A stretch of DNA of 64,000 nucleotides. Source: Squalus acanthias. Its lineage: Eukaryota. This document shows positions 6,601 to 42,960 of this stretch, one piece after another. Position numbers and translations under genes: made by a program. The stretch is taken from positions 12,400,001 through 12,464,000 of the forward strand of contig CM059432.1 in the NCBI GenBank assembly GCA_030390025.1, in the 5' to 3' direction. The notes under the pieces are model-generated. The model worked only from the letters and a program-made list of their open reading frames with translations. It did not search any database and was not told the DNA's origin. Every line of letters starts with the position of its first letter. Within the stretch, counting starts at the first letter, position 1.

Positions 6601-6610
6601 GAAATCCTAA

Positions 6611-14987: not shown

Positions 14988-15020
14988 CAAGCTTTCGGAG
15001 CTGTCGCTCCTTCGTCAGGT
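14988..15020 (-). ncRNA. Minimal hammerhead ribozyme motif (stem I 3' strand lost)
   Basis: CTGACGA-A-GGAGC-GACA-GCTCC-GAAA-GCTT. Confidence 0.65.
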
Positions 15021-15489
15021 AAGTTAGCAATGAGAGAATCTCCCAGAATTCACAATTTAAACCCAGACAAAATCTATTCACATTATTCGCTACAACAAAG
15101 AGCACAGCCAAGACAATGAGATGTGTCCCAGGGGGTCCAACGTGTCAAACCACCTGCTGGCTGCATATCCTGTCAATTTGTGCTCTTGTGTTAGCCTTTT
15201 TAAAAAAAAAAACACAAAAAAAAACCCAAAAAAACCACCTGGGAAGACCGGCCATGATGTCAAGTCACGTTCTGTATCGTGACATGAACCCGATATCGCG
15301 ATTGAGGCCATCCTCATGAGTGCGGAACTTGGCTATCAGTTTCTGCTCTATGATTTTGCGCTGTCGTGTATCTCGAAGGCCGCCTTGGAGAACGCTTACC
15401 CGCAGATCCGAGGCTGAATGCCCCTGGCTTCGAGATACACGACAGCGCAAAATCATAGAGCAGAAACTGATAGCCAAGTTCCGCACTCA
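14988..15489 (-). mobile_element. Penelope-like element family B: GIY-YIG C-terminus, 3' UTR, hammerhead and 5' fold-back
   Basis: Encodes ...QRKIIEQKLIAKFRTHEDGLNRDIGFMSRY*; 62-bp inverted arms at 15317-15378 and 15428-15489. Confidence 0.85.
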
Positions 15490-15562
15490 ATTTGACAGAG
15501 AGAGAGAGAGCAGGATTGATAAATTGTTGGAATAGAAGTAGAAGGCTTAGCTCAAAGAAATA

Positions 15563-15926
15563 CAGGAAACTCTTTATTAACCGGCACCCAAATATCCGGA
15601 AATCTCTCTTAACCGGCAAAATTCTTGAGTAGGTAACCGGCGTTTTCCTTCATCTCTCGTTTAAAATTAACTTAAAAAAACCCCCCGAGGCATTTGCCTT
15701 GTATCGGAGCGTGTAGATTGGGAGGGGAATGTGCAGCCCGGGTAGGCAGCGGACACGACAGATGGTCAGCTGGCGGTCCCCGGGGAGACGGAGCTCCGAA
15801 TGCAGGCGCATGTCAATGTGTACGGGGCTCTCGTACGTTGGGAGATATAACTCTCCGTTATCTGGACTTTTTGATTAACCGGCACCACGCCGGTCCCGTC
15901 GGTGCCGGTTAATAAAGAGTTTCCTG
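15563..15926. mobile_element. Tc1/mariner (Tigger/pogo-like) MITE, copy 2 (opposite orientation, sister subfamily)
   Basis: Perfect 26-bp TIR CAGGAAACTCTTTATTAACCGGCACC with TA flanks; subterminal similarity to 2732-3063. Confidence 0.9.
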
Positions 15927-16137
15927 TAGTTAGAAAATATTATCAGTGAGAAAATATCAGAGGAGAAAGAGAGAGAAAAAGGAAATAAAGAGGGAAAGAA
16001 GAAAGTAAAAACACTGTTGCAGTTGGATGGGGTGGCAGTGAAGGATTCTATCACAGCACTAACACATAATTGCGTTAAGACAGAATCCATATAGACAGTT
16101 AAGAAATAGCAAGGGAAACAATATAATTCTTAATGTA

Positions 16138-16332
16138 AAAAAAAAGCAAAATACTGCAGATGCTGGAAATCTGAAATGAAAACAGAAAATGCTGGAAATA
16201 CTCAGCAGGTCAGGCAGCATCTGTGGAGAGAGAGAAACAGAGTTAACGTTCGACCTGAAACATTAACTCTGTTTCTTTCTCTCTCCACAGATGCTGCCTG
16301 ACCTGCTGAGTATTTCCAGCATTTTCTGTTTT
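16138..16332. mobile_element. PLE family A 3'-end fold-back palindrome
   Basis: Inverted arms around aacgtt/cgacctgaaac; TSD TAATTCTTAATGTA at 16124-16137 and 16333-16346. Confidence 0.85.
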
Positions 16333-19198
16333 TAATTCTTAATGTACATTATAGGTCAATCAGTGACGATCAAATAGAGGGGGAAGACCTGCGGACAGGT
16401 CACAGAGATTTACAAGAAGAGAATGATAATATTAGACGATTTTAACTATTCTCAGAGAGAATGGAATAAAGGTAACACATCAAAGTAAGGAAAACATATA
16501 GAATTCGCCCAGGACCGCTTCCTAGATCATTATGTTTCTAGTTAAAACAGGAAAGAATTATTGCTTCATTTAGTTCTGCGAGATGTGGAGCAAATAAATA
16601 AAATGAGAGTAGGAGAACAATTGCGAAATAGTGGTCACAACATAATTAGGTTCAATTTAAGAATAGAAAATTTCGAAGAGTCAAAGATAAGGCCGCTGGA
16701 CTGGAAAAAGGCAAAATTTAAACAAGATAAAAGGGGGATCTGGCCCAAATTAACTGGTCAGAAAAATCAGCAAACAGATCATTAATTGGAAATCTTGAAA
16801 TATGAGATTGAAACAGTACAGAGATGTTAAATAGATAATTTTGCATTTTTCCCCCCTCCCCAAACGATGGTGGAAGTGAGAATGTAGGTGTACTGGACGA
16901 GGATACAGAACAATGGCTAGAGATAAATCTAGCAAGGGAATATTAGTTCTGAAGCAATTAGCAGAACACAAGGGTGGATAAATCACGGGGCCTTGTTAGA
17001 TTGCATTCTAAGCTGCTGTAAAGAAGTCAGGGAGAGAGAGATAGCAGAGGCTCTGGCCACAACTTTACAATCCTTCTCAACAGTGAGAATTGTGCTGTGG
17101 GACTGGAGAGCAACCAATGTAACATCTTTGTTCAAAAAAAAGAACAAAGGATAAACTAGGTAGCTAGATTAGTTGGTTTAATGTCAATTGTGGGCAGGAA
17201 TCTATAAGTCGAGATAAAATCAGTGGGCATTTAGAAATTCATGGGTTAATCAAGGACAGCCAGCACAGATTTGTTAAAAACAGGTTTCGCTTGACAAATT
17301 TAATAGAATTTTTTGAAGAAGCGATTGAATGGCTAGATAAAGGGAATGCAGTAGATGCACTGTATATGGGTTTAGAGAGGGAACTGCCTAAGGTGTTTCA
17401 CAAAGGTTTTGTTAGAAAAATTCGGGGATATGGTACAAGAGCAAATGTAGCAGCATGGATAGAAAGTTGGCTGACTGGCAGGAAACACAAGTATAATAAA
17501 TGGGTGTTGCTCGGACTGGAGAAATGTTGGAAGTGGTGTATCCCAGGGTCAATGTTGGGGCAGCTTCCGTTCTGGGCATATACGGATGATTTTGACTTGG
17601 TTTAAGGAACGCAATCTCAAAATTTGTTGACAACGCAAAAAAAAGAGGTCAGGGGGTGAACAAATGAGGACTGTTAGAAGGCCAGAAAGACAAAAGCAGG
17701 TTAATGGAATGTGCAGACAGGTGGGAGATGGAATTTAACGTGGATTTAAGTGCGAGATGATACATTGAGGGATGAAAATGAGGAATGCTTATGAAAACTG
17801 AAGGATGTGGATGAACTGAGCTTGGGGTTCAAAAGTGCGAGTGCAGGTCGATGAAGCCATGAAAAAGGTTAAGCCCAATTTGGGTCTTCTAAATAGGGCC
17901 ACAGAATTCAAGAGTACAGAAGTGATGATAAATTTGGTACAAAATACTGGTTATGCCAGTTAGCGTAGTGTGTGCAGTTTTGGGTAGCCCATTATAGAAA
18001 GGAGATTAAAAACCAGAGAGAGCATACACTGGACTCGCCAAGATAATGGCAGGGATGAGAAAGTTTAGTTATGAGGAGAAACTTGAAATCCTCAGACAAT
18101 TTCCACTGGGGCAGAGAAGGCCAAGAGGAGATTTTTGAAGCTATGAAAGGTTTTGATAGGAGCAGGAAAGACTACTTCCGCTGACTGAGGAGGAGTCAGC
18201 GACAAGGGGCCATAATTTTAAATAGTGCAGTGAGTGCTATTAGGAGAAATGTATTTACGCAAAGTTGTTGCAGCATGGAGTGCTTTGTCACAGGGAGCAG
18301 TTGAGGCAGCGACAACTGCAACTTTTAAAGGAAAATTGGATAAATAATTGAACACAAGGCTACGGGGAAGAGAGTGAAGCATTGGGATTAGTTACGGATT
18401 GCTCTAGCAAAGAGCCGGCGCAGGCACAATGGTTCCAATGGCCTCCTTCTATGCTGTAAACTTGAACCCGGTCCAGGCGAGTTGTTTAGCTCAAGTTTGA
18501 ACAACTTCTTCAGCACCATTTCTCTCTGAATAATAGCCTTCACTTTATTCTTCTACACCTACGACTGGTGGTGCCACAGTCCCAAGATCCACCTCCTCCA
18601 AAAACTGAAGCAGAGCACTTATTTAGTGTCCCCGTTCTTCTGCCCCTCTCCAGTACAAGCTTGTCTCCTTCAGCTACAGATAGTTCTGCCCCTTCCTATC
18701 CTCTGGCCAGTAGTGGGGCAGTGGGAGGGAGGAGGCACAAGAGCCAGAGACAGAGGAGTGGAGAGTTTGGGGTGGGGGTCGTTAAGGCTGGAGGAGGTTA
18801 CAGAGATCTCGTTTACACATTAGGTCACCCTCCCACCTACCCTCCACACCTCCCCAATTTCTCCTCTCCTGGCTTGGCATCTATTTCTTTATGCCTATTA
18901 GTGAAGTGCCTTGGGACATTTCTTTAAGTCACTGTTAAATTGGAGTTTTCTATTTTAATCAAGGACTCTAGTTCCTCAATTTTGCTTCTTACGCTCAGTG
19001 CATTGATGTAGGTACACCTTAGTTTGGATCTCCTTGGTACGGTAACTTTTCCTTTCTGTTTGCCTTCCCACATCCTTAATTCTTCTTTTACCTTTCTTGT
19101 CCTGTTTAGCCTCTATCCGCTTTCCTACCTCCTTATTTCCTATACACCAAGAGCTTTGTCTTCTGCTATCCTTACACCTTGAACAAAAACAATTAGTT

Positions 19199-19448
19199 GA
19201 CAGACCAGCAGTGGAGGAGAAACATCCGGGAAGGCGCCGAACACCTCGAGTCTCTTCGCCGGGAGCAAGCGGAAGCCAAGCGCAAGCAGCGCACGTCAAC
19301 CCAAGCACCCCACCCACCCGCTTCAACCGCCGTCTGCCCCACCTGTGACAGAGACTGTAGGTCCCGCATCGGACTCATCGGTCACCTGAGAACTCATTTT
19401 TAATGTGGAAGCAAGTCATCCTCGGTTCCGAGGGACTGCCTAAGAGAG
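19199..19448 (+). mobile_element. RTE (BovB-like) LINE 3' end
   Basis: C-terminal CPTCDRDCRSRIGLIGHLRTH zinc finger; two more copies in the window. Confidence 0.85.
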
Positions 19449-19941
19449 ATATGGAGAGGATGAAAATAATTCAGCGCATTATGATTTATGACCTGTTGCT
19501 GTATCACTTCTTTTCCAAAGTCCTCCAAGCGCGGCAGTATAAATAGCGGTTGCTCCGCCAGATACTCAGCAAGCTGTTACCCTGAATTCACCAAAGGTAA
19601 AGCTGGGATAGTGCTCAGAGTGAGGGAGAGGGCGAGAGTGGGAAAGCACAGTGCTTGCGGGGCATTTGATCGATGGGTCTAATTAATGAGGGTGACCGTA
19701 AAAGATAGTTATCAGGACTGGAGGTAAAAGCTGACACTTGCCACGGTCCCGGCTGCAGCAACAATGAGCACCCAATCTTTTCCTGCACAACTTACCAAAA
19801 AAACGGAATAGAGTGGTTTAATTTCCCCCCCCCCCCCCACCCCCCACCCTTGAATTTCTATGAAGTTATTCAGTTCTTATGATAAACATTTTTTGGGGAA
19901 CACATGGAAATACAGAGACGTCACCACATAGAAACAGGCCA

Positions 19942-20074
19942 CACAAAAGCAAAATACTGCGGATGCTGGAAATCTGAAATAAAGAGAGAAAATGCTGGAG
20001 ACACTCAGCAGGTCAGACAGCATCCGTGGAGAGAGAAACAACAGAGTTAACCTTTCAGGTCGGTGACCCTTCGT
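19942..20074 (-). mobile_element. PLE family A 3' end, truncated inside the hammerhead core
   Basis: TSD CATAGAAACAGGCCA at 19927-19941 and 20075-20089. Confidence 0.85.
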
Positions 20075-21547
20075 CATAGAAACAGGCCATTCAGCCCAGC
20101 CAGTCCGCGTCAACATTTAAACAACACGCAAGCAAATACACCGAGGCACATTTATCCAAACCTGTTCTCATATCCCTTCAACCCCCTTTTCCTTCATCCA
20201 CCAATCCAATTGAATCTTGAATATTGACACGGTTTCTACCTCAACCACCAAACCCTGGGGGTGAATTGCACAGCTTCACAGCTCTGTGTGAAGGTTTCCT
20301 CTGCCCCCAGTTCTAAATCTTGTATCTATGGCCCCTCAACGACTGGAAACAATCCCAAGAGTTTTGGACAGGAAGCAGGAGAAACCTTTTGTGGAATCAT
20401 AGAAACTTACGGCACAGAAGGAGGCCGTTCGGCCCATCGTGTTTGCGTAACGCGGGGCTGCGAGACTGTGAAATGCAGAGTTAGTGACTGAAGCAGAGAC
20501 CACGTCAACATTTAAGAACAGGTTAGACCGGTGGCTGAAGGAAAGGTGAATATGGCAGGCACAGGGCATCAGGACTAATGCTTACGTGGAGCATAAACAC
20601 CAGCACAGACGGTATGGGCCGATCGGCCTGTTTCCGTGTTGTAATTTCTGTGCAACTCCAAGTAATTCACGGTTGGAAAGTTGTGCACCAAGCTTGTCCG
20701 AATTTCCGATATGCGCTCTTAGCTGCTGCGGCACGACTGAGAAAAATGAACCTGTAGCAGCTACATTAACAGCACAGTCCTCTCTGGAGGAACCAAATAG
20801 CGCAATTCAGTCTGGCATCATCATATGTTTGGGTAAAGTCATCAAACGTCACAACTGTTCACTATTATAAGAACTTTATTTTACTGTCCAATTTTCAGGA
20901 TACATCAATGCTACACCCCTGTTTAGGAACTCGAGCTTGATCCCCCCCCACCCCCCCACAACTGACTTTTAACATCGAACCAAGGGTTAAGAGAGTTATT
21001 CCTAAGCGCAATTTCTCTTTACTAAGCCAACGCAGTGAACGGCCAATCATGAATCAGAGTTACAAGCACTCATTCCTCACCGAAATTTAAAAAACAGAAT
21101 ATTAACCACGCTTTCCGAGAATAATTCTGCAAAACTCCTCAACGTTTCAACTGTTTCATAAAGAACATGATTTGGACGCACACATTTTCTTTTTTCACAT
21201 CAACAAACATTAAGACAGACAGAAAACAGTAAAAAAAAAATCTGTTCCACAAATTAAGCAAGGACCTTCTCAACAACCCCTGTTCCACGCTGGTAGCAGT
21301 GAGAGTTACAGTACTGGGATATACGTTATTTAAAGGGGGAGAAAAAAAATGCAGGGAAGTGCACTTTCTGAAGCATTCCCCCCATCAGGCAAAATTATAC
21401 TCGGCAAGTACTTGCTACGGCTTGAGTGCTTGATTGCTCCCCAGGCCAATGTGAAGTTCTGGCCCTTCTTAAAATGAATGGGAACACTCCCTGTCAGTGA
21501 TGTCAATGGTGCAGCTCTGGAGGGAAGCAGAAATGATGGGTCTCAGT

Positions 21548-21760
21548 CACACACCATCCCGACTTGGAAATATGATCGCCGATCCTTCATCGTCGCTGGG
21601 TCAAAATTCTGGAACTCCCTCCCTAACAGCACTGTGGGAGTACCTTCACCACTCGGACCGCAGCGGTTCAAGAAGGTGGCTCACCACCACCTTCTCAAGG
21701 GCAATTAGGAGTGGGCAATAAATGGCGGCCTTGCCGCCCACATCACGGAACGAATAAAAA
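21548..21760 (+). mobile_element. CR1-clade family B 3' end
   Basis: RSFIVAGSKFWNSLP...FKKVAHHHLLKG, then tail gggcaataaatg. Confidence 0.8.
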
Positions 21761-22654
21761 CAGTCAGGCAGTGAACTCTTGACAATTCCTTTCAAATATA
21801 TTTACCAATTGTCTTTCCTTCCCCACCGCCCCCCCCTCACCGACAGAAACTGTGGGAGTAGGTTTGAAGGATTCTCCTGTAGCGTTTCCTATCTCTTTAA
21901 ATGCTACTTTATAGTGTAAAAACATTCTTGCAGGATTCCACGTGACACAAGATGAGCTGACAGTGAATGAGCAGCGGCCCTCAGACCTCGGTGGCGGTAG
22001 GTGTGCAGACCGGAGTGGTGAGGTTCCAGTGGCAAATAAAGAGGAGCAATCCACTGTCGCTTGGATCCAGTCTGGGCAGGGAAATGCACGGAGCCACTGC
22101 GGGTCAAGCTCTGAGTTGGTGCTGGTAGTTCTATATCGGTTGGTGGACTAACAGTATAACAGCATCTCCACTGCACCTGTGGTGAACTTCACCAGGAGAG
22201 GAGACGGGTGTGAAAGAAAAAGAAAAGAAAATGACAGATTTTGGCCGATACACAGTGCTTCCTAATGAGGCCTTCGCACCTTTTGGGGGAAATTTGCCCA
22301 GCCCTGGGGAGGCGGGTATGGAGGCGGGACTGCCAGGAAAATGGCAGAAACTGGGAGCAGGTACCGAACCCGCTCCCAACCCGCCTCCGTGCCATCTTCC
22401 CGGGAGGCGGGTCCCCAACTCACGCAGGGACCCGTCTCCTCGAGGCGGGAAGGGGATTACAGCCAATTAACATTGATAAGAATTGATAAAATCCAGCCAT
22501 TTGGTTTAAAAAAACTAGTGTTTCTTTTTTTTTTAAACAAAGCTGCTCATTTCCACAGATTCAACCGTGTCGGAAATGATAGGATTTTAAATTTGCTTAT
22601 TCATGGTTGGTAAAATTGCGTGGTTCTGGGATTTAAATTGGGAGGAGGAGTCAA

Positions 22655-22836: not shown

Positions 22837-23707
22837 CGTAATGAAATTATCTTGATACTTCTCTGCCATTTTCCCCTCACACAAGGAAGGCGAATTGCTC
22901 AGTGTCCTTTTAGTCTGACTTTCCTTAAGAAAATCATGGATTAATAAGCAAGCCTGCATGGTTACAGTCACTGGATTATTTAACATGAGAAACAATGTAC
23001 TTAAGAAACAGCAGGTATTATGAGACGGATCTACTCATATGCTTTAGTTCCTCTCTAACACATTAAAAACATTCATCTCAAAAAAATTGTCCAACCCAAT
23101 GTTGTTCTACCAGTAGTCGACCTTACTGACTTTCAGTGTAAGCTAATGTTTTGACAGCTACCTTACAAGATCATACACTTTATGAGATATATACACATTA
23201 AAAAAAAGCAATAACTGTGCCAAAAATAAAGCATTTATGTATCAAGCTATTGGATTCTTTCTTCCGGTCAGAGAACATTCAGGCTTAAATAAATCAGTTC
23301 ATTCACAGAAAATGGGCCAACTTGTTTTTATACATAATAACCCCAAGACAATGGTCATGTCTGTATCAGGTATCTGAGGGAGGGACCAAGCCATTCAATT
23401 CAAATACAAACATCCCATTCATTTAGTTTGAATGCATGTTCGATTGGAAGATCTAAGTCTAAGAGATACACATTTAAATTGCCCTTGTCCCAGTCAAATT
23501 TTGAACAGCGTAGCCTGTTTTCTTCCAACCTAGAAGTCCATTTGAAGCCACAAAGTGATAAATAGGTCAGACATTTCATGAAAGGTCAGCAGCAGACCAC
23601 GTGAAGTTACGTCAGGGACTTTGGGTCAGCTGAAGTTTATGCTGCAGTTAATGCAGCAAGAAGAAAATGTTTGTTATTTTCTATCTTCCAGGGTTAAGCA
23701 TGTAAAT

Positions 23708-23895
23708 AAAAACAGACAATGCTGGAAATACTCAGCAGGTCAGGCAGCATCCGTGGAGAGAGAAACAGAGTTAACGTTTCGGGTCGATGACCCTTCGTCA
23801 GAACTGGAAAAAGCTGGAGATGGAACAGGTTTTTAAGCAAGTGCAGGGGCAGGGAAAGGGGGGAGGGGAGTAAAGAACAAAAGGGAAGAAAAGGA
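23708..23895 (-). mobile_element. PLE family A 3' UTR fragment
   Basis: TSD AAGCATGTAAAT at 23696-23707 and 23896-23907; contains a hammerhead. Confidence 0.85.
23769..23805 (-). ncRNA. Minimal hammerhead ribozyme motif
   Basis: agtt-CTGACGA-A-GGGTC-ATC-GACCC-GAAA-CGT-T-aact. Confidence 0.75.
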
Positions 23896-23907
23896 AAGCA
23901 TGTAAAT

Positions 23908-24350
23908 TCTCATCCTTGTTTTCAAAGCCCTTCATTGCCTCGCCCCTCCTTATCTCTGTTATCTCCAGTTCGACAACCCTCTCTGCGCTCCTCCAATTCT
24001 GGGCTCTTGCGCATTCCCGATTATCATCGCTCCACCATTGGCGGCCGTGCCTTCAGCTGTCAAGGCCCTCAGCTCTGGAATTCCCTCCCTAAATCTCTCC
24101 GCCTCTCTACTTCTCTTCCTCCTTTAAGACACGTCTTAAAACCTACCTCTTTCACCTGACCTAATATCTCATGTGTCTCGTCAAATTTTGTTTGCTAATC
24201 GAGGTTCCCTTTAAGCGATGCGGCCTGGAGCTCCCGCTAAAGGGGCCGCACACCCAAAAAAATTTAAAGGGAACTTGTTGGTGGTAACACTCCTGTGAAG
24301 CGCCTTGGGACGGTTTAGTATATTAAAGGCGCTATATAAAGTTGTTGTTG
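23908..24350 (+). mobile_element. L2 LINE 3' end with a small MITE at ~24200-24280
   Basis: STIGGRAFSCQGPQLWNSLP; L2 tail; GTTCCCTTTAA/TTAAAGGGAAC inverted repeats. Confidence 0.8.
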
Positions 24351-24494
24351 AAACTATTGTAATTCTATGAGGGTTTTCTGTTGAACCCTTGGGCTCGCTA
24401 CAAACTACCTAGATACTGGGCTTGTAAAGGCACACGCCAGTTCATAGCCTCTCGACAGGAGTAAACCAAATCGGCTGATCATAAAAATACCTGA

Positions 24495-24845
24495 TGCGGA
24501 GATGCCGGTGTTGGACTGGGGTGGACAAAAGTGAGAAGTCGCACAACACCAGGTTATAGTCCAACAGTTTTATTTGAAATCACAAGCTTTCGGAGCGGCT
24601 GCTCCTTCGTCAGGTGAAGTAAAGGAATACAAAATCGACAAAGCATATATAGATAGAGAACAATGCATGTGTAACTTACAATGGCAGACGACTACATTTA
24701 ATCCTCCTGACTGTTTATCTGCCGAGGTGTGACAAAAGGCAATCAGGTCAGCCAGGAAGGCACCACATCAAAGACATAGCAAGATACAACTGAGACAATG
24801 AGGTGGGGGTTACAGGGGGTCTAATGTGTCAAAAGCTGCAGTCGG
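24495..24845 (-). mobile_element. PLE family B 3' UTR fragment
   Basis: Homologous to 14988-15160 and 42868-42951; contains a hammerhead. Confidence 0.7.
24580..24617 (-). ncRNA. Minimal hammerhead ribozyme motif (family B)
   Basis: tcac-CTGACGA-A-GGAGC-AGCC-GCTCC-GAAA-GCT-T-gtga. Confidence 0.75.
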
Positions 24846-25544
24846 TATGGAAAACGATAAACTTTAACATTTTTACTTTTTTACTGGGAATCACATCTGT
24901 GAACAAGCCAACGACTCGAGTCTGGATGAGACCTAGAAGAGAACCCCCCAAAATCTAACAAACGTCTTGTTAAAATTGTATCTAAAATCAAACTCCCATC
25001 AACAGCAACTTAAAACCAGTCAGCAAAATTCCATTTGAAAGAGTAGAAATTCCTTGCTCTGTAGTAGCGATAAAAAAAACTACAAATGGTGAAATCTTTT
25101 CTTAAAAGACAGAAAACAATGGAACTAAACAGGTCCATCTGTATTTGAAAGAAAAGTATCGACATGTTAAAATATTTTTCAGTCAAAACCTCTATCAGAA
25201 CTGCCAGAGGATCTCGACCCAAATCACTAACCTGTCTTTCCCTTCCCCCCCCCCCCAAGATACTGATGGACTGTGTAGTTATTGTATTTAATACTGTTTC
25301 GCATTGCATGAACTCTGAATTAGTGGTGGCCCAGCCAATGCAAAGTCAGAGCGTAGGACTCTGACATAAGAGACTAAATCCAACTCTCACATTTGGGCTC
25401 TCCTTTGAAATGGATGAGGGAGTGATAGGGAGGAGGTTAACGCATCTCAAGAAAACCAGCCTCCCAGCAAATCAACAATGGAAGGCAACAACTTTCTCAA
25501 ATCGGTCTATGGCTGGTCCAACCTATCCTCTCACCCAAGTAAGA

Positions 25545-27020
25545 TACAACAACAATTTTCATTTATGTAGCACCTTTCACTTCAATAAACGCCCCAATGC
25601 GCTTCACAAAAGTGTAATCAGGCAAAAAATTAACACTTGAGCCACAGAAGGAGATATTAGGAGGGGTGAATAAATTATTGGTCAAAGGGGCAGGTCTTAG
25701 AGGAGGAGAGAGAAGTGGATTGGCAGAGAGGTTTAGCATGGGAATTCCAAGGACTTAGACGGCTGAAGGCATGGCCATCAATGGTGGGGTAAAGGGAGTG
25801 AGGCTTGCGTAAGAGGCCGGAGTTGGAGAAACACAGAGTTCTCGGAGGGCTGGAGGATTCCAGAGGTTACAGACATAAGGAGAGGCAAAGCCATGAAGGG
25901 ATTTGAACACGAGTTCAGAATTTTAAATTTGAGGGGCTGGTGGACCGGAAGCCAGTGTAGGCCAGCGAGCACAGGGGTGGTGGGTAAGCAAGACTTGGTG
26001 TGGGATAGGATATGGGCAACAGCGTTTTGATGGGCTTAAGTTTAAGGAGGCTGGAGGATGGGAGGGCAGCCAAGAGAGCATTGGAATAGTGGAATCTCGC
26101 GGTAACAGAAGCATGGCTGAGGCAGGGACAGTGACGGATGATGTTACGGAGGTGTTTGTGATGGAGAAGATATGGGATTGGAAGCTCAGCTTGGAGTCAC
26201 ATCGGATGATGAGGTTTGTACAGTCTAGTTTAACCTGTGACAGTGGCTGGTGAGGGGGATGGAAATGCTGAGGGAATGAAGATTGTTGGGGGGTGGGGGT
26301 GCCAAGACAATCTAGGATTGGATGTCGGACAGGTAAACTGACAACAATGAGACAGCGGAGGAGTCGAAAGAGGTGGCAGAAAGGTAGAGCTGGGTGTCGT
26401 ACTCCAAATGTGAAACCTGACGCCATGTCTTCGGATGATGTAATTGAGGGGGTCACATGTAGATGAGGAATAGGAGGGAGCCAAGAATAGTTCATTAGGA
26501 GACTCCAGAGGCAACAGTGTGGGGAAGGGCAGGAAGAGAAGCCATTGCAAGTGACTGGAAGCACTCAGCAGGCCAGGCAGCATCCGTGGAGAGAGCTCTC
26601 TCCACAGATGCTGCCTGGCCTACTGAGTGCTTCCAGCATTTTCTGTTGTTATTTCAGATTTCCAGCATCCGCAGTATTTTGCTATTATACATTGCAAGTG
26701 ATTCTCTGGCTACAATTGGATTGGTAAGAATGGAACCAAGTGAGGGAGGTCCCACTCATATGGACAATGAAGGAGGAGCTGGAGGAGGATGGGGTGGTCG
26801 ACTGTGTCTAAGGCTGCAGTATTGTCGGGAAGGATGAGGAGGGATAGTACACCACGGTCACAGTCGCAGAGGATGTCATTGGTGACTTTGATTAGGGCCG
26901 TTTCCGTGCTGCGGCGGGGTGGAAACCCGAATGGAGGTTCAAACATGGAGTTGCGGAAAGGACGGGCACGGATTTGCGAGGAATGGGAGGTTGGTGATGG
27001 GGCGGTAGTTTGCAAGGTCA
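25545..27020 (-). mobile_element. Degenerate L2 LINE (RT to 3' end)
   Basis: STETALIKVTNDIL...DTVDHPILL; LAGLHWLPV; L2 tail near 25550. Confidence 0.85.
26555..26689. mobile_element. PLE family A fold-back inserted in L2
   Basis: Palindrome centred on gagagagctctctc; TSD CATTGCAAGTGA at 26543-26554 and 26690-26701. Confidence 0.85.
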
Positions 27021-29708: not shown

Positions 29709-30298
29709 CGATTATTGCCCTATTTCTGTACAATCCACCTTGATGGGATGACAGATGTCACTCTTCACTTTTCCTGGTGGTACCGAAAACAGCCACTGAC
29801 GAGGCAGTGACCAGTCATTCCCACCACCCTCCCACCCCACAATCTGCCAAGTGTAACAGTTTAACTCGCACTTACCCGTTTTCTGACTGTCGTAAAAATT
29901 CTGGCAGAGAACAGGTTCAATTTTCCTCCTTACAGGCGCAACCAGACTCCTTGCAGTTATGACTGTACGCTCCTCCAGACTGACGATGTATCAGAGAGAA
30001 TCTTTTACACTGACCTCCGTTTAACAGCTCTCTAAACGACAGCACCTAACGGCCGTGTAGCGCCCCCCTTCCGCACTAGCCTAGATTATGTACGGAAGGC
30101 TCTGAAGTGGAGCTTGAGCTCGTAAGCTTCTGACTCAAGAGGTAAGAGTGCAAACACTAACCCAAAGGAAGCACTGCACCATATTGGCAACACTGGGAAG
30201 CAACATGTCTTTGGCCAATCAGGTCGACGACAGCCACTTCTTTTGGCCATTGCTTTCACCCTCTTGCCGTTAAAATTGTCATGTACCATAAATTGACC

Positions 30299-30766
30299 TC
30301 GGCCTCTTACACTGTTCCAACGAAGCTCAACGTAAGCTCGAGGAACAGCACCTCATCTTTCTATTAGGCACTTTACAGCCTTCTGGACTCAACATCGAGT
30401 TCAACAATTTCAGACTATAAATTGGCCCCTGTAGTTCTTTAAAAAATTTTCTCTTGTTTCCTCACATGGTAGCTGTTAATGTTGCTGCCGTCATCATTCA
30501 CACTCATCTTGAGCCATCTTTTGTTTCTTAACTTGTCCCATTGCCTTTTGCCTTGCACTATCATCCCTGTTGTCATTCAATCTCTCCTGCCTTCCATCCC
30601 ATCACAGACCTTCCCTTTGTTCTTTCCTCCCCTCCTCCGCTTAAAAATCTCTCCTCCCTAACCTTTTCCAGTTCGGACGAAGGGTTCGACCCGAAACGTT
30701 GACTCTGTTTCGCCTCTCCTCGATGCTGCCTGACCTGCTCAGTGTTTCCAGCACTTTCTGTTGTTA
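30299..30766 (+). mobile_element. PLE family A: GIY-YIG C-terminus, 3' UTR and mutated hammerhead
   Basis: Encodes GLLHCSNEAQRKLEEQHLIFLLGTLQPSGLNIEFNNFRL*; TSD TACCATAAATTGACC at 30284-30298 and 30767-30781; core reads CGGACGA at 30674. Confidence 0.88.
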
Positions 30767-31029
30767 TACCATAAATTGACCATTTAGCGACCAGAGTCGG
30801 TGAACACCCCAAAGGACGGAGCCATTTCAGAAAGCGGAGATACTATAAATCAGGTCTAAGCAGCAATTGTAGGATAAAGTTCACTTTTCCAAATGTCACA
30901 TAACGTGCTCTGGGCAAATAGGTAACAGTTAACGTAGAGGGCGAGGCGGAACAGTCAGGACTTTGCATATCCCAGCACAGTAACCAGTGCGGCACTTATT
31001 TGGAGTTAGGAAAACTATGAACAAATGAT

Positions 31030-31256
31030 AGCAAAATACTGCGGATGCTGGAAATCTGAAATAACAACAGAAAACGCTGGAAAAACTCAGCAGGCCAGGC
31101 AGCATCCGTGGAGAGAGAAACAGAGTTAACGTTTCAGGTCGAAGACCTTTCATCAGAACTCTGACGAAAGGTCTTCGACCTGAAACGTTAACTCTGTTTC
31201 TCTCTCCACGGATGCTGCCTGGCCTGCTGAGTTTTTCCAGCGTTTTCTGTTGTTAT
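31030..31256. mobile_element. PLE family A fold-back with back-to-back hammerheads
   Basis: ~96-bp near-perfect inverted arms around AACT; TSD TATGAACAAATGAT at 31016-31029 and 31257-31270. Confidence 0.9.
31121..31163 (-). ncRNA. Hammerhead ribozyme motif with 7-bp stem I
   Basis: cagagtt-CTGATGA-A-AGGTC-TTC-GACCT-GAAA-CGT-T-aactctg; second core on the + strand at 31161-31196. Confidence 0.75.
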
Positions 31257-32166
31257 TATGAACAAATGATGTTCACGCTGCTCAAACGCTCTACTTTCCA
31301 CTTCCCAAACACTAATCCAAGGTATAACAGCACCAGAATACACACTGTAGTTCCCCCGCCCCCCACCCCCCACCCCCCCCGGCCAAATAGATGAATCATC
31401 AATTTTCGGGCAATGTTGAAACGCAGCGTGCTGCAGCTCCGACTCGCTTGTCCTGACGCACCGTTCAGCTGTATCGCTGAGTATAGGCATTTATCCACTG
31501 CGAGGATCGAAGGAATAAAACAGTCATCCCGGCTGCCCTTGGTGCACTCTCTCGTGGCCAGCTGGATAGCAGCACTGGCACAGAGCTGGGAGCGACACCT
31601 GCCCAGGTGCCTTGGCTAGAGAATGTTACGCGTGGTACAGGGAAACTCGGGGAGGAGAGAACTGAAATTAAACGGCTTATTTATTTTTTAAATCCTAGAG
31701 CGGTACAGGTGCACTAATAGGATCTTACCCAGTTACACTCGCTGCACATGAGAAAACCTCTTACCCAATTACACACAGAACAATAGGCAGTGACTGCCTG
31801 ACAAAAGTGGATGCACTTCCATGTTGGTCTAGAGCCAGCATATGTATGAATGGTGGTTTGCGGCTTTTAAAAAAAAACATATATAAAACTTTTGTTTATG
31901 CTCATCATGGTGACAGATGTTGGCGCTGGGGAACTGAACACTTTCCATTTTGGATACCCAAACCCTGATTTTCTGGCATGTTTAACACATTCATCTGAAA
32001 TTCCTCTTCCGACTATTTTAGCGGAGGCATTATTGGTTTATTTTAATAGAGTTAAAATAGCAGAGAGAGGAATTTCAGATGAACATGTTAGGTGTTCTTT
32101 TGCTAGTATCCCATGGTGTACTATCAGGGCTCCACTGTCAGCACCGAGTGCTCCAAGGTCAGATAT

Positions 32167-32636: not shown

Positions 32637-33075
32637 TTATCGGACCGGGCCTAAATGCAACGGCAGGGTATAGCGTCTCTGTGGGTCATTGTATCTGGGC
32701 ACCCTTCTGGTGAGCCAGGAGGAGAATGAGGCGAGAGAGCTGGGAATCCCTCTTCTGCCTCATTTCAATCCCTGCACTTCTTGTAAGCATAAGACATTCT
32801 GCCCCCACCCCTGAGTAAACCATGGAAATCCCAGGGCAACACAAAGGGTGGGGGGGTGGGGGGGGGGAGAAAGAGGTCTGCCATCACAGGTCTCTAACCC
32901 TTTTTCCATCTTTTGCACCTGGATGTTCCCCCTCAGCACCGGAGAAGAATATCAGGGCATAACGTCCACGGTGATTTTAATTAAGACAATGAAACGTGTA
33001 AAAAGATTTGTCACCGGAAGTACAAGGAGCAATTTAGTAAATTTTGGTATTTCCATGCACATATATTTTACATAA

Positions 33076-33243
33076 CTACAGAAAATGCTGGAAACACTCA
33101 GCAGGTCAGGCAGCATCGTGGAGAGAGAGAAACAGAGTCAATGTTTCAGGTCGATGACCCTTCGTCAGAACTGGAATGAGTTGGAGAAGTAAAAGATATT
33201 TAAGCAAGTGTGGGGCAGGGAAAGGGGGGAGAGGGGGGAAAGA
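33076..33243 (-). mobile_element. PLE family A 3' UTR fragment with hammerhead (33136-33172, helix III mutated)
   Basis: Approximate TSD atatttta(c/t)ataa at 33063-33075 and 33244-33256. Confidence 0.8.
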
Positions 33244-33701
33244 ATATTTTATATAAATTTGTTTGGCAACTGAAGTCTACACTAACTGATCATTAGGCTC
33301 GAGTGGAGCATCACGCCAGCATGGACTGGCTGGGCCGAATGGCCTCTTTCTGTGCCGTATATCCTATGTAAGTACAATGCTCTGAAGAAGAAAATATTGC
33401 CAGAAGCACAAACCAAGGACCCAACCAAAAACAAACATGCCTCAAGAACTTAAAGCAAATAGAAAATAATTTGGCGCAATATTTATGTGCAGTTATGTGC
33501 ATTACTATAATGTAACAAAGATTTTGATGTTAAACATTGCTTACATTGAGTTTAATATTGCCAGGTGCTTAAATAGATGGTGTACAGGTAAAATCCAGCT
33601 CATTAGTGTCGATATGTTGCCCACTAGGGAGCTTCTGCAAGGTTCTTTGAGATGCTGTCCACAGTAAGGAGCACTGTAGAAATATATAGGAAGGATATGT
33701 T

Positions 33702-33906
33702 CAGCAGGTCAGGCAGCATCTGTGGAGAGAGAAACAGAGTTAACGTTTCAGGTCGATGACCTTTCGTCAGAACTCTGACGAAGGGTCATCGACCTGAAAC
33801 GTTAACTCTGTTTCTCTCTCCACAGATGCTGCCTGACCTGCTGAGTATTTCCAGCATTTTCTCTTTTTATTTCAGATTTCCAGCATCCGCAGTATTTTGC
33901 TTTTGT
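33702..33906. mobile_element. PLE family A fold-back with back-to-back hammerheads, inserted in a CR1 tail
   Basis: Inverted arms around AACT (33771-33774); TSD GGAAGGATATGTT at 33689-33701 and 33907-33919. Confidence 0.9.
33735..33777 (-). ncRNA. Hammerhead ribozyme motif with 7-bp stem I
   Basis: cagagtt-CTGACGA-A-AGGTC-ATC-GACCT-GAAA-CGT-T-aactctg; second core on the + strand from 33775. Confidence 0.75.
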
Positions 33907-35184: not shown

Positions 35185-35752
35185 ATAGAATCAATCACAA
35201 AGGAGGCCATTCGACCCATCGAGTCTGCGCCGGCTCTTTCGAAGAGCAATCCAAGTTAGTCCCACTCCCCCGGCTCTTTCCCCATTTTCCTGCAATTTTT
35301 TCTCCTTCAAGTATTTATCCAATTCCCTGTTAAGGCTACTATTGAATCTGTATCCACCGCCCTATCAGGCAGCGCATTCCAAATCCAAACCACTCGCTGC
35401 GTAAAAAAGTTTCCCCCTCATGTCGCCTCTGGTTCTTTTGCCAATCACCTTAAATCTGTGCCCTCTGGTTATCGACCCTTCAGCCATTGCAAACCCTTCA
35501 TGGTTTTAAACACCTCTATCAAATCTCCTCTTAGCCTTCTCTGCTCTAAGGAGAACAACCCCAGCTTCTCTAGTCTGTCGATGTAACTGTAATCCCTTTT
35601 CCCTGGACCCATTCTAGTAAATCTCTTCTGTACCCTCTCCAAAGCCTTCACGTCCTTCATAAAGTGTGGCACCCAGAATTGGATACAATACTCCAGCTGG
35701 GGCCAAACTAGTATTTTATATAGGTTTAGCATAACTTCCTGGCTTCTGTACC
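35185..35752 (-). mobile_element. CR1 3' end
   Basis: LYKILVWPQLEYC...RRLRGDLIE. Confidence 0.85.
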
Positions 35753-36375
35753 ACTTTGAAGCAATTTTGAAATATAATAGTTAGAGCACCAATTTTGGAA
35801 GTTTCGCTGAACCAGAAAGGCATATTCTGATAGAGTCCATACTAACTTTGGAACTGGACTCTCTGAAGTGCAGAACTTGGACACGGTCTAGCTTCGACGT
35901 CTCCAGGTTTACTAGGAGTGCCACTCTGACTAACAAGGCATTACAAGGCTTGAGCCTGAACCAATATATGAGTGGTTTTGCTGAAATTGATGAAGGTAGC
36001 GTTCAATAGCAGAGAAAAAAGACGGAACAATGGCCAAAATGTAACTGGCTGAGAAACAGGGGTGTCCACCATTCAACTGGATTTGGTGGACCTTCAGCGG
36101 CAGATATGTCCTCCGCTCCAAGAAGGCTTCTTGTGTACCCATGCTGACGAGACATGCATCCATGTCTCAAGCTGACACCATCACTGGATATCCAATTTAC
36201 AGACTTCATGCAAACCATGAACTTAGCATCTGAGCACATTATTGTCATAGTGCTGGGGCAGAGACTTTCCTTCAAACCAAACTCCTTAAACCTGCATGGT
36301 TTGTCCCATTTGGAGAGAGAGATGTTCTACCTATACAAGCACATCAGTCAGTTCTCTTCTGCACCCTGTGTTTGG

Positions 36376-37820: not shown

Positions 37821-37969
37821 AGGGTTTGATAAAATTACTGTCACTTTTTTTTTACAAATTTCTAAATGAAACTTACAATAAGGAAACAGAGGCTAGATTG
37901 GAGGCCTAGATAAAGATGGCAGCGTACTGTGTTCATTTATCTTGGAAAGCGCACTGCTGTACTCGGTGC

Positions 37970-38432
37970 AAAAAAAGAAAGACTTTCATTTATATAGCGC
38001 CTTTCACAACAACCGGACGTCTCAAAGCGCTGTACAGCCAATGAAGTACTTTTTGAAGTGTAGTCGCTGTTGTAATGAAGGAAACACGGCAGCCAAATCT
38101 GCGCACAGCAAGCTCCCACAAACAGCAATGTGATAATGACCAGATAATCTGTTTTAGTGATGTTGATTGAGGGATAAATATTGGCCAGGATAACTCCCCT
38201 GCTCTTCTTTAAAATAGAATCATAGAAGATAGGAGCAGGAGTAGGCCATTCGGCCCCTCTAGCCTGCTCCGCCATTCAATGCGATCATGGCTGATCATCC
38301 AAATTCAGTACCCTGTCCCTGCTTTCTCCCCATATCCCTTGAATACTGCCATGGGATCATTTACGTCCACCTGAGAGAGCAGACAGGGACCTCGGTTTAA
38401 CGCCTCATCAGAAAGACGGCACCTCCGACAGC
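37970..38432 (-). mobile_element. SacSINE1-like SINE interrupted by a CR1 tail (~38214-38342)
   Basis: SINE body resumes after the insert (ctcttcttt...tgccatgggatc). Confidence 0.8.
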
Positions 38433-39329
38433 GCAGTTCAAATACTGAAGTTCAAATACTGAAGCCACTTCTCTGCATGCATAGAGGCCAATTTTCGGCG
38501 AGAATGTTGTCTCGGTGTACTCAGCGGAGCTTGTAGTTGGTGTTTCAGAGGATTTTTTTTAACCCACATTTGTACTGCGAGCTGCAACCAAACTTAACCC
38601 AGGTGCAGAAAGGGGCAACTGAACTAAGCAGCAATAGTACTGATAAGAAGAACGTGTCTGCTGGGCTCCGAATGCAAATTTGAGAAGGGCTGCATGAATT
38701 GTTCCATTTCCAGTGCAGAGTCAAAGCTAAATTCCCCGTACGTTAGATTAAGTGAAAATGAAACCCGAACCATGGCTTTAAATCTAGTTGTAGTGTGACT
38801 GATCAAATTGGTATTAAGGAGCCTATCACAACCCTGATCTAAAAATAACAATCTTTGGAAAAACACAGTCATGTGTTTATCAGGGTTCAGCTGCATATTG
38901 TCCCCGGTTTATTATAAAAAGATGTGATGACTGAAACTACGTCTTTTTTTTATCCTGAAGGAAAAACACAAATGCATTTGTTCCTCATCACCTGATTTTG
39001 CTGAACTGCTACATAAAAAGGGCTGATTCTGCCGATGCTTTCAGATGTTTCTTTCCAGCCCACCTGCACCACATCACATGCTGCCTACACTTCAGAATAC
39101 AAGTCCACTGTTCACCACATAATGCGAACGTGCATCAAAAAACAAATCATTTTGCATCTTTTCATCATTTTTTGATTGTTTGTTTTGTTGAGGTCATTTG
39201 CTGTCCCAAATTTTCGGGCTCCCCCAAGTCACTGAATATTACCCCGTTGAGTAGTGAGAGTGGCGATAATAGGGGAGTAAGTGACCTGCTCTACGTCTTT
39301 GCAAATGTCACTGTGCAAACATACAAGTG

Positions 39330-40965
39330 TGTCAGCCAGTGGCTCAGTGGGCAGCACTCTTGCCCCTTGAGTCAGAAGGTTGTGGGTTCATAGTCCCACT
39401 CCAGAGACTTGAGCTCAAAAATCTAGGCTGACACTCCAGTGCAGTGCTGAGGGAGAGCCGCACTGTCGGAGGTGCCGTCTTTCGGATGAGACGTTAAACC
39501 GAAGCCCCGTCTGCTCTCTTAGATGGACATAAAAGATCCCATGGCACTATTTCAAAAAAGAGCAGGGGATTTACCCATGGCGTCCTGGCCAATATTTATG
39601 GACGTGTCTATTCGCAACACCAAAATTCTGATTGGTCCCCTTGGATGACAAGACCTGATTGCTGATTGGTCCTCCATGGCGGACAAGACACACCCAGCAG
39701 TTTCTCTGGAATGTGTAATTAGATCCTCCCTGCCTACGTAATCAATTACTTTGCAGCGTGTAATTCGAGCCACTCTGACTGCGGACTCCAGACAGAACAG
39801 AGCTCACTCGCGGGTTAAGACCTTCTCCCAGCCCCCCAAACAAGTTCCTGCACCCCCCCTGCCCAAGTGCCTGACCTCCCCCCGCTCCAAGTTTCTGACC
39901 ATCCGCCCCTCCCCACCCCCGGGTTCCTGACCTTCCCCCACCGCCCCCCCACAGATGGGGCACTGTGCGTGGGTCACGGATTGTTAACAGGTTTATTGGG
40001 TATGAAGTGAATAGTGACAGCTTTCCGAGAAATCCACCAGGTCTAGGGGGAGGAGAGGGAGAACGTGATGCGGGTGTAAAGAGGGCAGGGTCGAAAGAAC
40101 GTGATCCGTCTCACCAGCTGGATCACGCTCTCATCCCCCCCTTTAGACCTGGATCACGTTTTTCCCCATCCCCACTGTGCCCTCCGTGCTCGTTATCTCC
40201 CCCCTCACCGAGTTCCTGACCTTCTCTCTCCCCCTCCTCTCTCTCTTGCCCCCCTTCACTCTCCCCCTCCTCTCTCTCTCTCCCCTCCTCTCTGTTGACC
40301 CCCTTCTCTCTCTCCCCTCTCTCTCTTGCCCCCCTTCTCTCTCTCCTCCCCTCCTGTCTCTCTCCCCTCCTCCTCTCCCTCTCTCCCCTCCTCCCCCTCC
40401 TCCGATTTCCTCTCTCTCCACCTCCTCTCCCTCTCCCTCTCTCCCCCTCCGATCCCCACTCTCTCTCTGAAGTCCGCAAAAATGTTCATGTAGATAATAA
40501 CAGCGATATTCTAGGCAATAGCCCAGTATGCTCCGTTAGTCTAGTCATTGATTTTCGAAAGATAACCGAAAGCCCTGGTAGCAGGCTCAGGCAGCAATGG
40601 CGGCAGCACCAGGCTCGGCAGTGGTTCGGCCCCACTTCCAGCTTCCTCATATATCGTATTGCACAAGCGTGACCGGATTGAGTGCACATGCGCAGAACCA
40701 AACAGGCGTGCGTGTGCAGAGGGAGTCAAAAATCGCCGTGCAAAGTCATTCCGAATAGTTATCCCTCAACCAACATCACTAAAACAGATTATCCGGTCAT
40801 TATCACATTGCTGCTTGTGGGAGTTTGCTGTGCACAAATTGGCTGCCACGTTTCCCACATCACAACAGTGACTCCACTTCAAATATTACTTCATTGGCTG
40901 TAAAGCGCTTTGGGACGTCCTGAGGTCGTAAAAGGCGCTATAGAAATGCAAGTCCGTCTTTTTCT
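39330..40965 (+). mobile_element. SacSINE1-like SINE split by a ~1.16-kb insertion (39600-40758)
   Basis: ...gccaatatttat | insert | ttatccctcaaccaacatcac rejoins the SINE consensus. Confidence 0.8.
40190..40468. repeat. CT-rich low-complexity tract
   Basis: Almost pure pyrimidine on the + strand. Confidence 0.9.
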
Positions 40966-41904
40966 TTTGACTCTTTCTATGTGCAAAGAGGGAGGGGGGG
41001 AGGAAGAAAAGATTTATAACTTGTGGTCACCATCTTCTAGAGGTTAAAAACGTGGCACGAGGGAAATGGTGCAATTGGGAGTGTGAACACTGGATGTTTT
41101 CCATGGGGTGGGGTGGGGGGTGGGCGGGCAGTGGGATAGGGATTGGGATTGGGATTGGGAGTGTGAACACTGGATGTTTTCCATAGGGTGGGGGGGGGGC
41201 GGGATTGTGAACCACATTTTGTCGTACACTTTACCCACTTATTATCCTGTCTGGGACACAAACTGGAGACTGCGTGACCGGTAGTAGCTTATTCGTAATG
41301 TAAACTCCAAGGGATTAGAGCATTGCAATGGGTGTAGCAAAAGTGATCGTGGCACACCTTAGAACGCTCTGAGCAACTGTAATAAAACTATCGGTAGGTC
41401 CGTAATAATAGCCTTTTGGAAAAACATGTAAAATACTGTTTATTCCTCAACGATGTGACAAATCGAACTACACATACGGCTTAATATAATGTAAAAAAAA
41501 ATATACAGGTCTTAAATTTACACAGGAACTAAGCTGAATGCCCAGCTGGGAATTGTGGGGGGGGGGGGGGGGGGGAGCATTTAGAAAAAAAAATAAAGTG
41601 CAGAAGAAGTGCAGCAGAGTATTTTCAAGACCCGCATCAAGTGGAGGCTAAATTTAGCTGTATAAGAGGAGTTACGGGAGCTGCTGCTTTTAAACCGAGA
41701 GCAATTAGCTCCCAGGCTCTCCTCGATTCTGAGCCCAGCGAAAGAAAGTCACATTTAGCCAAGAACAACAGATACCAGTCCAGGAAGCTGCGAGTCACTG
41801 AAAGGTCAACATGTGCACACTAGATACTCCATTTTCATCCCACACTACTTCTTAAGGAAGAATTCTCAGCATCAGCACAGCCTCCAAAAAAAAATTACAT
41901 TGTT

Positions 41905-42222
41905 AGACAGAGAGAAACTACTCCCGCCGGTTGGGGAGTCGAGGACTAAGAGGGCATCGTCTAAAAGTTAGAGCCGGACCTTTCAGGAGTGAAATTCGGA
42001 AACACTTCTACACACACAAAGGATGGTAGAAGTTTGGAACTCTCATCCGCAAATGGCAACTGATGCTAGATCAACTGTTAATTTTAAATCTGAGATTGAT
42101 AGATTTTTGTTCACCAAAGGTATTAAGGGATATGGGGCCAAAGGAGTTAGGTCGCAGATCAACCATGATCTCATTGAATGGCGGAATAGGTTCGAGGGGC
42201 TGAATGGCCTCCTCCTGTTCCT
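41905..42222 (+). mobile_element. CR1 3' end
   Basis: VEVWNSHPQ...FKSEIDRFL plus tail. Confidence 0.8.
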
Positions 42223-42574
42223 AAGTAAAAAGAATTCCCGATGTTTTCAATCCTGTTTAAACACTGATAGGATGAATGAGGAACTGAGTTACTAAGCTCA
42301 ACACTACAGAGGAGCTGGATTCAAAGTAGGGGAGTCTAAATGTAGTCATAAAGACAAAGAATTTTTAGGAGCAGGGGGATTAGGCCCAACAAACCCTGTC
42401 TCTTTTTGACAGAACTCAGCCGATCAATCCACCCTGTCACCTCATCTTTTAAGTGCCACCAGTTCCTACAGGCACATTTTTAAATTGATGCTTTTTGGAA
42501 AGATAATTTTGGAATCATTTCTGCGAGAACTTTTTCAATAAATATAATCCAAAAGTACAATGAAACATATGGGG

Positions 42575-42760
42575 AATAACAACAGAAAATGCTGGAAATA
42601 CTCAGCAGGCCAGGCAGCATCCGTGGAGAGAGAAACAGAGTTAACGTTTCAGGTCTGGGACCCTTCGTCAGAACTGGTAAAAGTTGGAGATGTAACAGGT
42701 TTTAAACAGGTGCAGAGGCAGGGAAAGGTGGGGGGAAAGGGGGGGGGAAGGAACTGAAGG
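42575..42760 (-). mobile_element. PLE family A 3' UTR fragment with intact hammerhead (42639-42675)
   Basis: agtt-CTGACGA-A-GGGTC-CCA-GACCT-GAAA-CGT-T-aact. Confidence 0.82.
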
Positions 42761-42864
42761 GACGCTCTGTGCTAGAAACATATGGGGATCCTGGCCGCTT
42801 TAAAAAAAAAAATTACACTAATGACAACCAAAATCTTACTCATTACTATTCCCCTTGTACTATA

Positions 42865-42960
42865 TATGTGAGAAGTCGCACAACACCAGGTTATAGTCCA
42901 ACAGCTTTATTTGAAATCACAAGCTTTCGGAGCGCTGCTCCTTCGTCAGGTTCCACATCA
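42865..42960 (-). mobile_element. PLE family B minimal insertion, essentially hammerhead plus 3' end
   Basis: Matches 24531-24615; TSD TTGTACTATA at 42855-42864 and 42961-42970. Confidence 0.8.

Follow-up and report, generated by a model that had tools for sequence, protein, structure and literature searches.

Minimal hammerhead ribozymes were described in 2014 by Cervera and de la Pena in the Neptune, Poseidon and Xena elements of fish, which belong to the Penelope-like (PLE) retrotransposons (PMC4209133). These motifs combine the hammerhead core with an unpaired base between positions 9 and 10.1, a short helix I and a palindromic 15.2-16.2. They are placed in both pseudo-LTRs, some 3 kb apart, and occur as thousands of single copies and as close pairs on opposite strands. 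Their cleavage is weak and dimer-dependent, the monomer being inactive, and weak, dimer-dependent cleavage is also the account given by the review PMC6765202, which cites Lunse et al. on dimer cleavage. For the Poseidon element PAc of Anolis (Frangieh et al. 2024, PMC11167929), cleavage is reported to be assisted by the protein and abolished by core mutants, while ribozyme-dead mutants still insert in vitro and no RNA-seq read ended at the cut site. The PAc protein nicks and extends both strands, with two internal RT starts. EN+ PLEs of the Neptune/Nematis type carry a single ORF, RT then GIY-YIG, and a CX2-5CxxC linker between RT and EN is given as the mark of Neptune and Nematis elements; partial tandems, an adjacent inverted truncated copy and a 30-40-bp tail at one end are among the traits of EN+ PLEs, and the role of PLE hammerheads is still called unclear (PMC8557442). 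Type I hammerheads related to those of PLE pseudo-LTRs are also described in non-LTR retrozymes of animals, including one chondrichthyan; these retrozymes are tandem arrays of short non-coding monomers (bioRxiv 10.64898/2026.07.22.740005).

The window analysed here is a stretch of 64,000 nucleotides of Squalus acanthias DNA. A preliminary description had listed hammerhead motifs at 11 sites, and all 11 belong to two PLE families, A and B. Each site holds the motif or a damaged form of it, but only 5 of the 11 keep the full fold (23769, 31121, 33735 and 42639 in family A, 24580 in family B), the other six being damaged (30670, 33136, 31161, 33775, 42917 and 14988). The copies found in the window, including some that had not been cited, are as follows.

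14988..15022, minus strand: family B hammerhead, 3'-truncated 1 nt past the predicted cut, with the 3' strand of helix I lost.
15023..15429, minus strand: family B 3' UTR and GIY-YIG C-terminus (15429-15268).
15425..15496, plus strand: short inverted piece of the same family B GIY-YIG end.
16138..16337, both strands: uncited family A head-to-head pair joined within the hammerhead, one arm with a long tail and the other with a short one, 14-bp duplication.
19941..20076, minus strand: uncited family A long-tail copy beginning at the core.
23704..23888, minus strand: family A short-tail copy, full-fold hammerhead at 23769-23805, 12-nt duplicated flank.
24525..24929, minus strand: family B copy, full-fold hammerhead at 24580-24617.
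26555..26689, both strands: uncited family A pair made up of two tails arranged head to head and lacking a hammerhead, with a 12-bp duplication.
30294..30767, plus strand: family A copy with GIY-YIG C-terminus, 3' UTR, hammerhead at 30670-30704 broken in its core by U4 to G, short tail and 15-bp target-site duplication.
31028..31257, both strands: family A head-to-head pair, 14-bp target-site duplication; the minus arm has a long tail and the full fold at 31124-31160 (cited as 31121), and the plus arm has a short tail and begins at the core (31161), the 5' strand of helix I being lost at the inversion junction.
33072..33244, minus strand: family A copy, hammerhead at 33136-33172 with a broken palindrome.
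33693..33904, both strands: family A head-to-head pair, 10-nt duplicated flank; the minus arm is short, with the full fold at 33738-33774 (cited as 33735), and the plus arm has a long tail and begins at the core (33775), the 5' strand of helix I again being lost at the inversion junction.
42575..42775, minus strand: family A short-tail copy, full-fold hammerhead at 42639-42675, 14-nt duplicated flank.
42866..42951, minus strand: family B mini-copy, hammerhead at 42917-42951, 5'-truncated so that it starts 2 nt before the core and keeps 2 bp of helix I, 10-nt duplicated flank.
63862..64000, plus strand: uncited family A GIY-YIG end and UTR, whose hammerhead starts 226 bases beyond the window end.

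The copies at 30299 and 14988 had been linked to GIY-YIG ORF ends, and rightly so: 30294-30416 is the C-terminus of the family A ORF, 54/54 residues encoded by 15429-15268 are identical to the intact family B ORF, and the whole 14988 copy is 98.4% identical to the intact family B element. The possibility that the 14988 copy merely abuts the end of a CR1-like ORF was rejected, the GIY-YIG end lying upstream of it on the minus strand. Copies in the window are single or head-to-head and run into PLE UTR and ORF, which sets them apart from retrozymes.

In core, unpaired base, short helix I, palindrome, location and scattering, the motifs match those of PMC4209133. They differ from them by a helix II of 5 bp, and by the scarcity in family A of the G10.1-C11.1 pair, a frequent trait of metazoan PLE minimal hammerheads that lies outside the published descriptor and is present in family B. 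Copy number is about 10 times the highest given there (~9,000, in Xenopus, obtained by a different search method). The motif and its setting have been known since 2014, and the addition made here is two shark families at very high copy number; sharks are not named in the available text of PMC4209133, whose supplements may already list shark motifs.

Strict pattern matches in the 3.7-Gb genome numbered 41,395 for family A and 42,915 for family B, with 0 for the reversed control in each case. Intact copies of both families carry an RT and GIY-YIG ORF with one hammerhead 5' and one 3' of it, spaced by 3,199 nt in A and 3,046 nt in B, as befits the two PLE families that had been proposed. A 1,004-aa frame was open in 37 of the 150 family A matches listed (hand count), and 18 of 20 fetched full-length A loci had a hammerhead at both ends, about 3.2 kb apart. 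The A ORF matched RVT_1 at E 2.6e-5, below the Pfam cut-off, and GIY-YIG above the cut-off in its C-terminal part. One family B locus (L062), a partial tandem, holds an intact 892-aa ORF between two B matches, with RVT_1 above the Pfam cut-off. This ORF starts about 92 nt after the predicted cut, unlike that of PAc, a member of the Penelope/Poseidon clade, which starts from stem II (PMC11167929). Pfam GIY-YIG was not found in the B protein, which still aligns to the A protein through the GIY-YIG domain; identity between the two is 32% over 886 positions, and both contain a C-x4-C-xx-C linker. By this linker motif, common to both clades in PMC8557442, A and B would be placed as Neptune/Nematis-type elements. 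Partial tandems, an inverted truncated copy, a tail at one end and target-site duplications were all found, as in other EN+ PLEs, and the best named protein relatives were shark proteins (80-94% identity).

No Rfam covariance model matched at gathering score in the window, and no Rfam hammerhead was found at E up to 10 in 23600-24800; the missing helix III is the likely reason. A structural descriptor that requires the core, at least 4 bp of helix II, a palindromic helix III and at least 3 bp of helix I retrieved 5 motifs in the window and none in any of 100 dinucleotide shuffles. Applied to an unselected 824-kb sample (the window, its neighbours and six other contigs), it retrieved 34 full-fold motifs (21 A, 13 B; 0 in 10 shuffles). 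All 34 were A or B, so that no third hammerhead family was found by this sequence-free descriptor in the 824 kb. Roughly one motif per 6 kb had been estimated for the window; the sample yielded one full-fold motif per 24 kb and, damaged copies included, about one copy per 10 kb (79 in 824 kb), and the window is therefore somewhat richer than the sample. From the similarity search, 5 of 90 matches that came from non-PLE flank and 6 under 80% identity were left out. The copy sets used below comprise 86 A and 98 B strict matches located in the initial 9 Mb of contig C1, reduced from 96 and 103 by taking out two junction-chosen loci and duplicate contexts.

As judged from sequence, both families carry a predicted minimal type I hammerhead with a palindromic helix III, in agreement with the preliminary description: helix III is a self-complementary 4-mer in each, with the inner bases swapped between A and B. 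The unpaired base between positions 9 and 10.1 was present in 34/34 descriptor matches, the descriptor having allowed none. Across 21 recurrent variants (seen at least 3 times), the columns without any change were those of the catalytic core and of the extra A, plus three positions in helix II. C3-U4-G5-A6-N7-G8-A9, G12-A13-A14-A15.1, U16.1 and H17 were kept in 21/21, N7 varying freely and G being absent from position 17. In the alignment of these variants 98.7% of cells paired, against 21-46% in slid controls, and 8 of the 11 pairs changed on both sides. The number of pairs changed on both sides did not exceed what shuffling gave (363/500), and most pair covariation reflects one event, the A/B split; in all, covariation rests on few independent events, namely this split and a single series of steps within B. 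Outside the coding region, the ends of the two families resemble each other no more than expected by chance (best local score 21, against a shuffled mean of 20). Since the core is invariant despite these dissimilar ends and 32% ORF identity, selection on the hammerhead fold in the active lineages appears well supported.

Compensatory covariation had also been proposed within helix II of family A. The first pair of this helix is A-U in 44 of 86 copies and G-U in 42, a one-sided change. C was found at this position in 583 of the 41,395 A matches; among the first 100 of them listed (hand count), 31 were A-C mismatches and 35 were true G-C pairs of a small A subfamily with a CTC loop. Outside this subfamily, G-C and A-C were about equally frequent (34 and 29, hand count), the pattern expected of later point mutation, so that the G-C at 23769 probably arose in that way. 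The G-C form is thus real in the CTC-loop subfamily, but variation at this pair is mainly one-sided. Two-sided change can be read in the sequences between the families, and within helix I of family B. There, pair 3 was C-G in 48, U-A in 31, U-G in 6 and mismatched in 2 of 87 copies, and a tree of 28 B UTRs, in which branches as long as 0.4 changes per site lie between the clades, ordered these states as U-A, U-G, C-G along a single stepwise path. The fourth pair was unpaired in 25/87.

With ViennaRNA, the hammerhead dimer lay 6-14 kcal/mol above the best two-strand fold for 6/6 motifs, tertiary contacts being ignored, and the family A monomer favoured a non-hammerhead hairpin. The unfavourable dimer energies are in line with the weak dimer-dependent cleavage published, and with its assistance by the protein. 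The motifs had been described as ribozymes that are or were active. This may well hold for the active lineages, where the fold is likely under selection, but working ribozymes are unlikely among the scattered copies, which are truncated insertions and, in more than half of the cited cases, damaged; the published monomer, too, is inactive.

Insertions end at about +68 or +102 nt from the predicted cut in family A and at +55 or +93 nt in family B, carry duplications of 12-14 bp, and read straight through the predicted cut site. Only 1 of 86 A copies and 0 of 98 B copies had a 3' end within 10 nt of the cut, and 5' ends fell at the cut site in 2 of 79 copies of the unselected 824 kb. Ends defined by cleavage were consequently rejected for most copies, and the rarity of ends at the cut suggests that templates were mostly uncut, or re-joined, at the ribozyme. 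A long tail on one arm and a short tail on the other were found in 54/55 A pairs and 61/63 B pairs (115/118 head-to-head pairs, at loci of which some were picked for having junctions and none for tail length), and target-site duplications of A and B head-to-head pairs peaked at 14 and 12-13 bp. The simplest reading is one priming site per strand, with both strands primed. A tail at one end only is a known PLE trait (PMC8557442; PMC3846280), and antisense self-priming has been proposed earlier for PLEs. PAc, too, has two fixed sites past its hammerhead at which insertions end, and its insertions, like these, are consistent with both-strand priming from uncut RNA (PMC11167929).

The 5' ends accumulate in the 10 nt just upstream of the core, where they were found in 19 of 86 copies in family A (3.3 expected), 37 of 98 in family B (4.4 expected) and 23 of 79 in the unselected 824 kb. 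Many cDNAs thus share a fixed stopping point at the helix I front. This pile-up is not described for PAc in the available text of PMC11167929, and no title or abstract on a 5'-end pile-up or cap signature in PLEs was found in a literature search where subscription papers are thinly covered. Spliced templates as its cause found no support, the short A copies sharing no upstream exon; family A has an acceptor-like stretch before helix I, and family B has no AG there. Among B copies starting 7 nt before the core, the preceding base was G in 81 and A in 19 (first 100 of 4,193 matches, hand count). One base further in, it was G in only 18 of the first 100 of 3,952 matches, and at distant B truncations in 9/36 and 8/25. 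Thirty B loci were examined, of which 24 had the G; it was templated by the inverted arm in 12 according to a script and in 3 more on inspection, which leaves about 9 unexplained in this way, all preceded by T. Microhomology or re-priming can therefore explain part of the B G excess. Family A had no clear G excess before the start (37 G, 30 A, 33 T), and its ends were spread over neighbouring bases (4,321 and 6,021 matches, point mutants included). Among ORF-bearing B copies (young subfamily, plus strand only), 0/20 started at the pile-up base or at the cut, 15/20 reached at least 22 nt further upstream and 5/20 started inside the tail; full-length copies therefore seem to derive from longer or circular templates.

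The B G excess hints at a capped RNA end. Taken with the pile-up and with the ORF-bearing B copies that never start there, it would fit a tentative and rather doubtful scheme in which transcription starts on the first bases of the hammerhead, making the ribozyme a self-decapping switch. In both families the start would coincide with an initiator-like pyrimidine-A step, 7 nt ahead of the core in B and about 4 nt ahead of it in A. Uncut capped RNA would be translated and would be the source of the mass of 90-140-nt copies; the cut would remove a capped leader of ~33-38 nt and free the end that closes a circle, leading to full-length tandem copies. Against this scheme stand the G's templated by inverted arms, the lack of an excess in family A, and the start of Drosophila Penelope, which is reported to precede helix I by 46 nt plus a 75-nt intron (PMC2377424).

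The explanation that we consider probable is that the scattered motifs lie in truncated 3'-end copies of two PLE families, whose terminal-repeat hammerhead would be maintained by selection in the active elements and would cleave slowly, paired and helped by protein. The protein would nick both target strands and prime two cDNAs, one at each fixed site, which would produce head-to-head pairs with one long and one short tail. The template would usually be uncut at the hammerhead, many cDNAs would terminate by run-off where the RNA has a fixed end, at the helix I front, and lone scattered copies would be by-products. Least certain is the last step, on which we are evenly divided: the two hammerheads of a tandem transcript would pair through their 4-nt palindrome to release a unit-length RNA, then a circle, and from it more-than-unit tandems. 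Terminal repeats within one full-length A copy were identical over 185 nt in 15/18, against a mean of 2.9 differences when full-length A copies were compared with each other; identical repeats would also be expected from template jumps or read-through of a uniform tandem. With its intact young elements, natural GUC/GUU variants and >80,000 insertions, the genome is a record of the reaction. Its insertion ends, which point to both-strand priming at two fixed sites and to a fixed stop at the ribozyme front, supply precise coordinates at which caps, cut ends and circles can be looked for, and their statistics make the role of the ribozyme testable.

It is improbable, in our view, that the hammerhead shape owes its conservation to a role as structural signal (protein binding, promoter or RT stop) with cleavage as an incidental property. 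The invariant positions in the 21 variants are the catalytic ones, N7 being free and 17 never G, the youngest A copies carry GUC, and cleavage was lost in the Anolis core mutants (PMC11167929); a structural signal would nevertheless account for insertions that nearly all cross the cut site and for ends that cluster at the helix I edge, away from it, and would agree with the cleavage-independent insertion of the Anolis element in vitro and with Naiad PLEs, which thrive without hammerheads (PMC8557442). Quite unlikely is the proposal that scattered copies are working ribozymes which cut host transcripts running through them. The ~84,000 strict matches and the 34 full-fold motifs of the 824 kb lend it some appeal, and two same-strand copies in one long transcript could pair, but 6 of the 11 cited motifs are damaged, A-C mismatches pile up as under neutral decay, head-to-head pairs place their motifs on opposite strands, and the monomer is inactive (PMC4209133). 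Least probable of all, and largely excluded by junction diversity, is a separate non-autonomous family (retrozyme or SINE) of short and fold-back copies made from short masters: many 90-140-nt copies do have similar starts, and head-to-head junctions within 30 nt number at least 1,460 in A and 4,471 in B, but these junctions vary from copy to copy, short copies cover several subfamily variants, longer ones grade into PLE UTR and ORF, and no tandem short monomers happened to be met in the loci examined for other purposes. A mobile palindromic subfamily, suggested by the identical junction of 31149 and 33763, was rejected as well, this exact junction occurring just 113 times genome-wide among the at least 1,460 varied ones.

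The cuts are predicted after GUU in family A and CUU in family B, as had been put forward. Beside these, GUC was found in 14 of 18 of the youngest intact A copies and CUC in 25 of 98 B copies. In most copies position 17 is U, which would sit in a 6-nt palindrome that can pair inactively.

Two of the head-to-head family A pairs, in which the arms lie on opposite strands, have the following junctions.

31149-31168, family A head-to-head junction, in the pair at 31028-31257
33763-33782, family A head-to-head junction, in the pair at 33693-33904

These two sequences are identical. They belong to two independent head-to-head insertions with 2.6 kb between them, and a search of the 3.7 Gb genome returned only 113 occurrences of the exact junction. 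Helix I of the minus-strand arm is extended to 7 bp by this junction. A comparable close-set pair was noticed on contig C10 of the same genome.

In family A copies (loci L001-L030), the bases immediately 5′ of helix I include a branch-point-like motif, a pyrimidine tract and an AG, which ends 2 nt 5′ of the core. This acceptor-like stretch resembles the arrangement in the Penelope element of Drosophila, which has an intron that reaches up to helix I (PMC2377424). No spliced family A copies were seen. When the free core position N7 is a U, an AUG is created inside the catalytic core, in frame with the 1,004-aa ORF, as at L368:2973-2980 and in further young copies of family A. This putative start recalls the Anolis element PAc, whose ORF begins in the ribozyme (PMC11167929).

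At G000:C4:15717272-15724199, three units of family A stand in tandem with a spacing of ~3.2 kb, and the 1,004-aa frame is open in all of them. At another locus, reading frames at L064:6021-8710, which adjoin tandem family A fragments, may encode a gag-like retroelement protein, which they resemble.

The family B copy at 14988 was inserted in the last codons of the following frame.

14560-14987, decayed reading frame, CR1-like

It looks like the end of an ORF1 of the esterase type, as in CR1 LINEs. Decayed frames that look like C-termini of CR1 LINE ORF2 are also numerous in the window, seven of them listed here.

1740-2407, decayed frame, CR1 ORF2 C-terminus-like
6504-6947, same
13926-14513, same
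35469-35780, same
44698-45102, same
53540-54160, same
54543-54932, same

Also abundant is a SINE-like repeat family (repeat groups D1, D4, D8 and D11), with five copies listed here and related ones.

4145-4314, SINE-like repeat copy
7821-7990, same
12303-12472, same
40745-40914, same
47468-47637, same
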